From Escherichia coli (lineage in GTDB: Bacteria > Pseudomonadota > Gammaproteobacteria > Enterobacterales > Enterobacteriaceae), in the NCBI RefSeq assembly GCF_003334255.1, contig NZ_QOWU01000007.1: a stretch of 64,000 bases of DNA; one strand, written 5' to 3'. A model generated the notes under the pieces. The model was not told where the DNA came from and made no database searches. It was given only the letters and a program-made list of their open reading frames with translations. A program made the translations under genes and the position numbers. Position 1 is the stretch's first letter. Every line of letters begins with the position of its first letter. Below are positions 35,023 through 36,922 of this stretch, one piece after another.

Positions 35023-35622
35023 ATGCTCTATATCTTTGATTTAGTTAATGTGATTGTCGATATCGACTTTAACCGTGTGCTGGGAGCCTGGAGCGATTTA
35101 ACGCGTATTCCGCTGGCATCGCTTAAGAAGAGTTTTCATATGGGGGAGGCGTTTCATCAGCATGAGCGTGGGGAAATTAGCGACGAAGCGTTCGCAGAGG
35201 CGCTGTGTCATGAGATGGCTCTACCGCTAAGCTACGAGCAGTTCTCTCACGGCTGGCAGGCGGTGTTTGTTGCGCTGCGCCCGGAAGTGATCGCCATCAT
35301 GCATAAACTGCGTGAGCAGGGGCATCGCGTGGTGGTGCTTTCCAATACCAACCGCCTGCATACCACCTTCTGGCCGGAAGAATACCCGGAAATTCGTGAT
35401 GCTGCTGACCATATCTATCTGTCGCAAGATCTGGGGATGCGCAAACCTGAAGCACGAATTTACCAGCATGTTTTGCAGGCGGAAGGTTTTTCACCCAGCG
35501 ATACGGTCTTTTTCGACGATAACGCCGATAATATAGAAGGAGCCAATCAGCTGGGCATTACCAGTATTCTGGTGAAAGATAAAACCACCATCCCGGACTA
35601 TTTCGCGAAGGTGTTATGCTAA
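35023..35622 (+). CDS. yihX: HAD-superfamily phosphatase (alpha-D-glucose-1-phosphate phosphatase YihX)
   Basis: Track ORF trimmed to MLYIFDL..., 199 aa, with the HAD C-terminal motif FFDDNADN. Confidence 0.88.
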
Positions 35623-36488
35623 AAACCATTCAGGACAAAGCCAGGCACCGTACCCGTCCACTATGGGCCTGGCTAAAACTACTCTGGCAACGCATTGATG
35701 AGGACAACATGACAACCCTGGCAGGTAACCTTGCCTATGTGTCGTTGCTCTCATTAGTGCCGCTGGTTGCCGTTGTTTTTGCGCTTTTCGCCGCTTTTCC
35801 CATGTTTTCCGACGTCAGCATTCAGTTACGTCACTTTATTTTTGCCAACTTTCTGCCTGCTACTGGCGATGTTATTCAGCGGTATATCGAACAATTTGTT
35901 GCCAATTCCAACAAGATGACCGCCGTTGGGGCGTGCGGGCTGATCGTCACCGCGTTATTGTTGATGTACTCCATCGATAGCGCGTTGAATACCATCTGGC
36001 GCAGTAAACGAGCGCGACCAAAAATTTACTCGTTCGCCGTGTACTGGATGATTTTAACGCTGGGGCCGCTGCTGGCAGGGGCCAGTCTGGCGATCAGTTC
36101 CTATTTGCTCTCCCTGCGCTGGGCGAGCGATCTCAATACTGTCATCGACAACGTGCTGCGTATTTTTCCGTTGCTGTTGTCGTGGATCTCCTTCTGGTTG
36201 CTGTACAGCATTGTTCCTACCATCCGCGTACCTAACCGCGACGCGATTGTCGGCGCGTTTGTCGCCGCACTCCTGTTCGAAGCAGGAAAGAAAGGTTTCG
36301 CGCTTTATATCACCATGTTCCCGTCATATCAGCTCATTTATGGTGTGCTGGCGGTGATCCCCATTCTCTTTGTTTGGGTCTACTGGACATGGTGTATCGT
36401 CTTGCTTGGCGCGGAAATTACTGTCACTCTCGGGGAATACCGCAAACTAAAACAAGCAGCTGAACAAGAAGAAGACGACGAACCATGA
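35616..36488 (+). CDS. yihY: BrkB/YihY-family inner membrane protein (formerly 'RNase BN')
   Basis: 290-aa polytopic membrane ORF. Start overlaps the yihX stop by 7 nt. Confidence 0.9.
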
Positions 36489-36922
36489 TTGCATTAATTC
36501 AACGCGTAACCCGTGCCAGCGTCACCGTGGAGGGAGAAGTGACGGGCGAAATTGGCGCGGGACTTTTGGTGTTATTGGGTGTCGAAAAGGATGACGACGA
36601 ACAGAAAGCAAACCGTCTGTGCGAGCGTGTGCTCGGCTACCGCATCTTTAGCGATGCCGAAGGCAAGATGAATCTCAACGTGCAACAGGCGGGCGGCAGT
36701 GTGCTGGTGGTTTCCCAGTTTACCCTCGCCGCAGATACCGAACGGGGGATGCGCCCAAGTTTCTCCAAAGGTGCATCACCGGATCGCGCAGAGGCGTTAT
36801 ATGACTATTTCGTCGAACGCTGCCGTCAGCAAGAGATGAACACGCAAACAGGACGCTTCGCTGCGGATATGCAGGTATCGCTGGTCAATGATGGCCCCGT
36901 GACATTCTGGTTGCAGGTATGA
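36485..36922 (+). CDS. dtd: D-aminoacyl-tRNA deacylase
   Basis: 145-aa ORF ([19 protein letters not shown]...). ATGA overlap with the yihY stop. Confidence 0.95.

Follow-up and report, generated by a model that had tools for sequence, protein, structure and literature searches.

Termination-reinitiation (TeRe) has been described for pairs of co-directional genes with -4 or -1 overlaps (Huber et al. 2019, PMC6728339; PMC10666635), and in Escherichia coli as many as 820 unidirectional gene pairs lie at distances of -8 to +10 nt, with -4 and -1 being the commonest (PMC10666635). In the same work TeRe was functional in E. coli over a range of distances within which -7 and -4 fall, gaps of about 20 nt nearly abolished coupling, and the range from -8 to +10 nt was treated by the authors as predictive of coupling (PMC10666635). 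For 69.6% of the closely spaced pairs in E. coli, the two products are not parts of one complex (PMC10666635).

Among the transcription units listed in RegulonDB (as used in PMC4421995) is a four-cistron unit, yihXY-dtd-yiiD. The product of its last gene, FabY/YiiD, combines a GNAT domain with a malonyl-ACP decarboxylase and supports a FabH-independent start of fatty-acid synthesis (PMC8666670), and in Salmonella it alters cAMP levels in the course of the lag phase on succinate (PMC13353551); neither of these two papers makes a statement on the operon structure or the start codon of fabY. YihY has been described as a CysZ-like membrane protein of six helices whose own function is called unknown (preprint 10.64898/2026.03.31.715626). 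We found no paper linking yihX, yihY and dtd together, and none that joins the four genes.

Here we show that a 64,000-nt stretch of E. coli DNA (the whole stretch analysed, referred to as the window) carries this already catalogued yihX-yihY-dtd-fabY operon. The feature is real, ordinary and already known; two of its overlaps are solid, and the third is annotation-dependent. The best explanation of the whole, to which we assign a probability of roughly 0.7, is a known compacted unit in which yihX, yihY and dtd are connected by reinitiation, fabY is initiated separately, and the grouping is historical. The features of the locus are as follows.

35010 to 35017, plus strand: strong Shine-Dalgarno (SD) sequence, AAAGGAGG, belonging to yihX, which opens the unit
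35023 to 35622, plus strand: yihX, HAD-family glucose-1-phosphatase, 199 aa; ATG at 35023, TAA at 35620-35622
35616 to 35622, plus strand: yihX/yihY overlap of 7 nt, ATGCTAA (yihY ATG, then yihX TAA)
35616 to 36488, plus strand: yihY, BrkB-family membrane protein; ATG at 35616, TGA at 36486-36488
36485 to 36488, plus strand: yihY/dtd ATGA overlap, present in the sequence, in PGAP and in K-12
36485 to 36922, plus strand: dtd, D-aminoacyl-tRNA deacylase, 145 aa; ATG at 36485, stop at 36920-36922
36919 to 36922, plus strand: ATGA that includes the stop codon of dtd; the legacy K-12 annotation begins fabY here, but translation probably does not
36923 to 36966, plus strand: spacer between dtd and fabY, read as an "N-terminal extension" in the 329-aa model; it evolves like non-coding sequence
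36954 to 36959, plus strand: conserved purine tract AGAGAG, at -13 to -8 from ATG 36967; presumed ribosome-binding site of fabY
36967 to 37908, plus strand: fabY (yiiD/madA), taken from the conserved start MYHLRVP; GNAT domain and YiiD_C hotdog malonyl-ACP decarboxylase domain, 313 aa (PGAP)

The 3.1 kb around yihX-fabY are 95-100% identical to E. coli chromosomes, with a best E. coli match of 100%, and the region is present in all 5,426 of 5,426 complete E. coli genomes. Sequence comparison of yihX-fabY with K-12 MG1655 revealed 2 different bases, 1 of them synonymous, and YihX carries a rare G8V substitution. In comparison with the K-12 unit of RegulonDB and EcoCyc, the locus has the same four genes in the same order and on the same strand, with no structural difference apart from YihX G8V and a fabY start that differs between the K-12 annotation and PGAP. 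The preliminary description of this DNA, made from the sequence alone, had recognised the genes as yihX, yihY, dtd and yiiD; these identities are right, the RefSeq names being yihX, yihY, dtd and fabY (formerly yiiD). YihY is identical to K-12 YihY and belongs to the YihY/BrkB family (PF03631), which is carried in the precomputed Pfam column by proteins 99-100% identical to the query. FabY is likewise identical to K-12 FabY, and in sequence searches of the PDB its residues 27-161 match GNAT acetyltransferases and its residues 169-314 match 1t82, 3lmb and 8ayv (the last being a YiiD_C domain-containing protein), which gives the FabY/YiiD/MadA architecture of an N-terminal GNAT domain and a C-terminal YiiD_C hotdog domain.

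A crude consensus scan of the plus strand from 35000 to 37900 found no sigma-70-like promoter, and the only terminator-like site on that strand in the same interval, at 37293, lies within fabY and has a weak stem of 5 bp. No Rfam family was found in 34000-39500, and yihX, yihY, dtd and fabY have no entries in the SMRT-Cappable-seq or TRAINSPOTTER N-terminomics supplements.

For the comparison of gene order and gene starts, 80 Dtd-anchored loci were used (the best 80 of at least 583 Dtd loci, one genome per species), in which the four genes were located by tblastn. These loci span many families of Enterobacterales, together with Orbales, Pasteurellales, Vibrionales, and Aeromonadales. The arrangement was judged in the 77 loci with enough upstream sequence.

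The two upstream overlaps, 7 nt between yihX and yihY, with the yihY ATG lying inside the end of yihX, and ATGA between yihY and dtd, had been read from the sequence in the preliminary description, and both are found at the same coordinates in PGAP and in K-12 MG1655. With same-strand distances of -7 and -4 nt, respectively, both junctions fall within the range of about -8 to +10 nt. Upstream of residues 14-31, a segment that can be aligned in distant homologues, yihY has no start codon other than the ATG at 35616. The -7 layout of yihX/yihY occurs in most core Enterobacteriaceae loci, and overlap of these two genes is limited to Enterobacteriaceae and Erwiniaceae; the distance in Erwiniaceae is mostly -4 or -1 but extends up to +3 (+15 in Rosenbergiella), and gaps of a few nt to about 175 nt are seen in Tatumella, Yersiniaceae, Hafniaceae, and Budviciaceae. 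Between yihY and dtd the distance is -4 in 44 of the 64 loci in which the two genes adjoin, and reaches a maximum of 86 nt. The dtd start reads (A/G)TG-AT(N), encoding Met-Ile, in all full-length loci. Since dtd always starts with Met-Ile (ATG-AT.), a TGA is built into one upstream frame; the yihY/dtd ATGA may come cheaply, with the variable acidic tail of YihY being able to end at this built-in TGA.

Start/stop overlaps of this kind are ordinary. Based on PGAP coordinates, overlaps are found at 8 of the 39 same-strand neighbour junctions in the window (distances of -19, -7, -4, -4, -4, -1, -11, and -4), and two other two-step overlap chains, fdoH-fdoI-fdhE and frvB-frvX-frvR, lie within it. 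The preliminary description had pointed to the same ATGA coupling in fdhE-fdoI-fdoH and in mobA-mobB, which are located as follows.

39769 to 42229, minus strand: fdhE-fdoI-fdoH, two ATGA overlaps, at 40698-40695 (fdoI/fdhE) and 41330-41327 (fdoH/fdoI)
376 to 1469, minus strand: mobA-mobB, 19-nt overlap at 885-903; ATGA at 888-885 only at internal Met6 of mobB

Both ATGA sites of fdhE-fdoI-fdoH are borne out by the sequence and by PGAP. The fdoGHI-fdhE operon thus likewise has two consecutive ATGA overlaps; here FdhE is the accessory factor of the enzyme to which both FdoH and FdoI belong as subunits, which gives coupling an obvious stoichiometric rationale that yihX-fabY does not share. For mobA-mobB the claim holds only in part: the ATGA does exist with the internal Met6 codon of mobB, but the longest ORF and PGAP both start mobB at ATG 903. 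Both MobB N-termini have been used in PDB entries.

The sharing of ATGA by dtd and yiiD, likewise reported beforehand, depends on which start of fabY is accepted. It exists under the K-12 start at 36919, which gives the longest ORF (329 aa), but the PGAP start at ATG 36967 leaves 44 nt between the two genes. An ATG equivalent to 36967 is kept in 69 fabY loci from five gammaproteobacterial orders, it opens the conserved N-terminus MYHLRVP in all orders (MF.. in Vibrionaceae), and in 65 of the 69 loci a gap of 15-150 nt separates it from the end of dtd (+44 nt in E. coli). Only 29 of the 69 loci offer an in-frame start that overlaps the stop codon of dtd, the others having an in-frame stop or a different frame. 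In the purine tract ahead of the conserved ATG, positions -11 to -9 are free of C and T in 69 of 69 loci, T occurs twice at -12, and AGAGA is present in 49 of 69. Variability and identity across the spacer were computed on 19 sequences from core Enterobacteriaceae whose spacers have the same length. The three codon positions had a variability of 0.43/0.64/0.67 in the spacer, compared to 0.05/0.00/0.79 at the 3' end of dtd and 0.09/0.15/0.82 in fabY after Met17; the 45-nt "extension" therefore shows neither codon periodicity nor third-position bias, and 13 of its 15 second codon positions are variable. Mean pairwise amino-acid identity was 60% for the extension, 100% for the dtd flank, and 89% for the fabY flank. 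The SD duplex energy for fabY is -2.2 kcal/mol at 36919 versus -5.1 kcal/mol at 36967.

Taken together, the conserved ATG, the purine tract, the aperiodic spacer, and the SD energies indicate that the conserved, main start of fabY is probably ATG 36967. The ATGA at 36919 would be an artefact of longest-ORF annotation, or would at best serve as a secondary start in a particular lineage. Across the same 19 sequences the fabY frame from 36919 to 36967 contains 0 stops, and length variants of 44, 47, and 32 nt in core Enterobacteriaceae are all in frame, such that some translation from the ATGA may occur in this group. Comparison of the spacers by eye showed no apparent conservation in other genera of a hairpin around the ATGA (36900-36942).

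SD duplex energies with the 16S 3' end are -11.6 kcal/mol for yihX (the strongest of the five candidate starts tested), -3.9 kcal/mol for yihY, and -1.9 kcal/mol for dtd. Local RNA folding detected no significant structure masking the starts at the three junctions; the dtd start region is unusually unstructured (z = +2.07), and the yihY start has z = -0.42. The strength of the dtd SD was also considered as a correlate of overlap state: over all loci it is weaker at overlapping than at spaced starts (p = 0.0007), but without the core Enterobacteriaceae, which are close relatives of one another, p rises to 0.15, and this co-variation was dropped as evidence.

Translational coupling from yihX to yihY and on to dtd is plausible. 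The unit opens with the strong SD of yihX, whereas the start codons of yihY and dtd lie 7 and 4 nt within the gene before them and have a weak SD or none. In the mechanism we propose, ribosomes that terminate on yihX and yihY most likely initiate anew at the ATGs in the overlaps by termination-reinitiation, as the anatomy of the junctions and published similar pairs suggest, and translation of yihY and of dtd may in this way be partly dependent on the gene upstream. FabY would stand outside this relay, being initiated at 36967 from its own purine-rich ribosome-binding site. The yihX/yihY and yihY/dtd junctions resemble the TeRe pairs of Huber et al. (2019, PMC6728339) and PMC10666635 in being co-directional, in their distances of -7 and -4 nt, and in having a downstream start without a good SD. 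They differ from those pairs in that their coupling is a prediction and in that no known complex contains their products as subunits; the dtd-fabY junction, measured from the conserved start, is outside the coupling range, and comes within about -8 to +10 nt only with the legacy start at 36919.

Co-conservation of the four-gene arrangement across genera had been put forward as a check of the preliminary description, and the order is indeed kept in most of the loci judged, as listed here.

48 of 77 loci: yihX-yihY-dtd-fabY (Enterobacteriaceae, Erwiniaceae, Yersiniaceae, Hafnia, Budviciaceae)
11 of 77 loci: yihX-dtd-fabY, no yihY (Morganellaceae, Pectobacteriaceae)
1 of 77 loci: yihX-yihY-dtd (Edwardsiella)
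8 of 77 loci: yihY-dtd only (Orbales, Pasteurellales)
7 of 77 loci: yihY-dtd-fabY, no yihX (Vibrionaceae, Aeromonas)
2 of 77 loci: dtd-fabY only (Aeromonas schubertii, Oceanisphaera)

Adjacency of yihY and dtd, or of dtd and fabY, extends over five orders. The grouping would accordingly reflect history and not a shared pathway: a yihY-dtd(-fabY) block appears common to Enterobacterales, Pasteurellales, Orbales, Vibrionales, and Aeromonadales, and yihX probably joined it in Enterobacterales. The locus lacks yihY in Morganellaceae and Pectobacteriaceae, and lacks fabY in Pasteurellales and Orbales. In Aeromonas yihY is immediately preceded by typA, and in Photobacterium typA is likewise upstream but with two ORFs intervening, whereas the E. 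coli typA lies at a distance of 17 kb, with the sulfoquinovose cluster (yihL-csqR) and yihX in between. The proximity of typA to yihY in Aeromonas and Photobacterium therefore suggests that the intervening genes, the sulfoquinovose cluster and yihX, were inserted into an older typA-yihY-dtd-fabY block. The earlier remark that yihX-yiiD has no obvious shared pathway stands, and unrelated functions are typical of close pairs (69.6% being non-complex, as cited above from PMC10666635).

An exhaustive representative search found YihY homologues outside this clade (38-48% identity) to be without a dtd neighbour; these are mostly long forms with an extra C-terminal region of about 130 aa. A short, Pasteurellaceae-like form of YihY (46% identity) overlaps dtd by 4 nt. 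Homologues of 400-450 aa were considered as YihY-Dtd fusions (290 + 145 = 435) and rejected, their extensions being unlike Dtd by eye and carrying Pfam PF03631 only. The sole true fusion, P0004 (434 aa, PF03631 and PF02580), comes from just one sequence in ENA and is probably due to a junction indel.

Other accounts of the locus differ in how its proteins would be started. The preliminary description held all four genes to be translationally coupled, which would have fabY start at the ATGA at 36919 and a single ribosome relay make all four proteins. This start is indeed the one annotated in K-12 MG1655, and in core Enterobacteriaceae its frame is open with an ATG at -4 in 22 of 22 loci, with length variants in frame and with 0 stops in the fabY frame versus 12 in one other frame (19 sequences). 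Against this, 40 of 69 loci do not offer this start, which moreover has no SD to speak of (-2.2 kcal/mol), precedes an extension without third-position bias and with 13 of 15 second positions variable, is not used by PGAP, and lies outside the N-terminus MYHLRVP that is conserved across all orders. Given that the conserved start is 44 nt past the dtd stop and behind its own conserved purine tract, and that gaps of about 20 nt nearly abolish coupling, the four-gene chain is unsupported; coupling of dtd to fabY is unlikely, and we consider the full relay very improbable. Alternatively, the overlaps could be neutral by-products of compaction, with no functional coupling and with each gene initiated independently on a shared mRNA. 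The frequency of overlaps in general (8 of 39 junctions in this window), the ATGA forced on dtd by its Met-Ile start, the frequent replacement of overlap by gaps of 0-38 nt with adjacency kept, and products that are not known to form a complex all agree with such an origin, but E. coli dtd is almost devoid of an SD (-1.9 kcal/mol), which would make independent initiation inefficient. We regard purely neutral compaction as unlikely, and favour reinitiation from yihX through yihY to dtd with a separately initiated fabY.

The historical part of this preferred reading also has a competitor, in which the pairing of yihY and dtd is a functional partnership, with YihY for example handling the D-amino acids released by Dtd and coupling serving to match their amounts. 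Adjacency in five orders, mostly at -4, speaks for it, as does the preprint cited above (10.64898/2026.03.31.715626), in which YihY, described as CysZ-like, and CysZ are called "inner membrane transporters". However, yihY is gone from 11 Morganellaceae and Pectobacteriaceae loci in which yihX-dtd-fabY are still together, homologues outside the clade are not beside dtd, the long YihY forms carry PF03631 only and no Dtd domain, and no literature joining YihY and Dtd was found. Such a partnership thus appears extremely improbable as the explanation of the pairing. The narrower proposal that short-form YihY and Dtd are functionally linked, prompted by an adjacency (mostly ATGA) kept in Enterobacterales, Pasteurellales, Orbales, and Vibrionales, is a long shot to which we give slimmer chances still. 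We therefore retain the historical grouping as the preferred reading.

The biological weight of the feature is small, as standard E. coli databases already contain both the operon and its overlaps, and it is usual for genes of unrelated function to overlap by a few nucleotides. In the 329-aa model of FabY/YiiD from K-12, 16 residues are probably outside the conserved protein, and these extra residues matter for expression constructs, residue numbering, and proteomics. The adjacency of yihY and dtd is old and lineage-restricted, and offers a weak but testable lead to the function of YihY; were the link to Dtd true, it would suggest that the CysZ-like YihY handles D-amino acids or otherwise supports chiral proofreading.

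The RNA surrounding the dtd start (window 36435-36534) was unusually unstructured, with a fold energy z of +2.07 relative to shuffled sequences, 198 of 200 of which folded at least as well as the native RNA; this is consistent with an accessible re-initiation site at the point where the yihY stop and dtd start codons overlap (the ATGA junction). In 11 loci checked at the locus only (L033-L065; members of Dickeya, Pectobacterium, Brenneria, Photorhabdus, Xenorhabdus, Providencia, and Morganella), yihY is missing between yihX and dtd, leaving a gap of 7-189 nt, and most of these loci carry a clear GGAG or AAGGA Shine-Dalgarno (SD) sequence for dtd.

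Beyond the enterobacterial/vibrio clade, YihY homologues are mostly 400-450 aa in length (P0126-P0270), the long forms having a C-terminal region of approximately 130 aa that is absent from E. coli YihY, while the short form coincides with the clade where dtd lies downstream of yihY. One 434-aa protein from ENA, P0004, contains both the YihY/BrkB family (PF03631) and Dtd (PF02580) domains, and is 100% identical to YihY across the matched part; most likely, the ATGA junction here contains a sequencing error or an indel of 1 nt, which would produce this YihY-Dtd fusion.

A purine-only, AGAGAG-like tract lying 8-13 nt 5' of the conserved fabY ATG (window 36954-36959) is maintained at the equivalent position in 69 loci from several orders (L005-L083). 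Its pairing with the anti-SD is only moderate (mean -5.6 kcal/mol); the tract might do more than serve as an ordinary SD. The dtd stop and the legacy fabY ATG are enclosed by a predicted hairpin (UGACAUUCUGG...CCAGGGUUGUCA, window 36900-36942); the 100-nt fold containing it was not significant (z = -0.91), and its 3' arm displayed no apparent conservation in other genera when spacers were compared by eye.

Additional start/stop overlaps, not listed in the preliminary description, occur elsewhere in the window (PGAP annotation; frv and rha positions are PGAP coordinates shifted by +14,899):

Within window about 47577-50395 (frvR/frvX/frvB), minus strand: frvX/frvR, overlap -1
Within window about 47577-50395 (frvR/frvX/frvB), minus strand: frvB/frvX, overlap -11
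Window 55449-55452, minus strand: rhaB/rhaA, overlap -4

The start of yiiF (window 39197-39439) is likewise annotation-dependent, giving 243 nt (PGAP and longest ORF) versus 219 nt (K-12 MG1655).

Within yihX, a GGT to GTT change at window 35045 (codon 8, 35044-35046) results in a G8V substitution adjoining the catalytic Asp6 region (FDLGNV to FDLVNV), and may alter phosphatase activity. Codon 8 encodes Gly in K-12 and the other strains sampled, and among 5,357 complete E. coli genomes with a match, only 3 have exactly these first 78 nt of yihX. In the closest genome, strain RM10410, two ISVsa5/IS4-like insertions that are absent from the window interrupt yihN and yihF, and the dsbA-to-yihX interval is 2,676 bp shorter in the window than in RM10410:

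L001 6466-7674: ISVsa5/IS4-like insertion in RM10410
L002 1296-2504: ISVsa5/IS4-like insertion in RM10410

Spacing between typA and yihY was compared using two further loci:

L069 1070-3925: comparison locus for typA-yihY spacing
L050 9-4004: comparison locus for typA-yihY spacing

In Aeromonas, typA lies directly 5' of yihY, and in Photobacterium the two are separated by two ORFs, whereas in the E. coli window typA is found about 17 kb upstream of yihX, with the yihL-csqR cluster for sulfoquinovose catabolism intervening, along with yihX, between typA and yihY. This difference in gene order suggests that the sulfoquinovose cluster and yihX were inserted into an older typA-yihY-dtd-fabY block.
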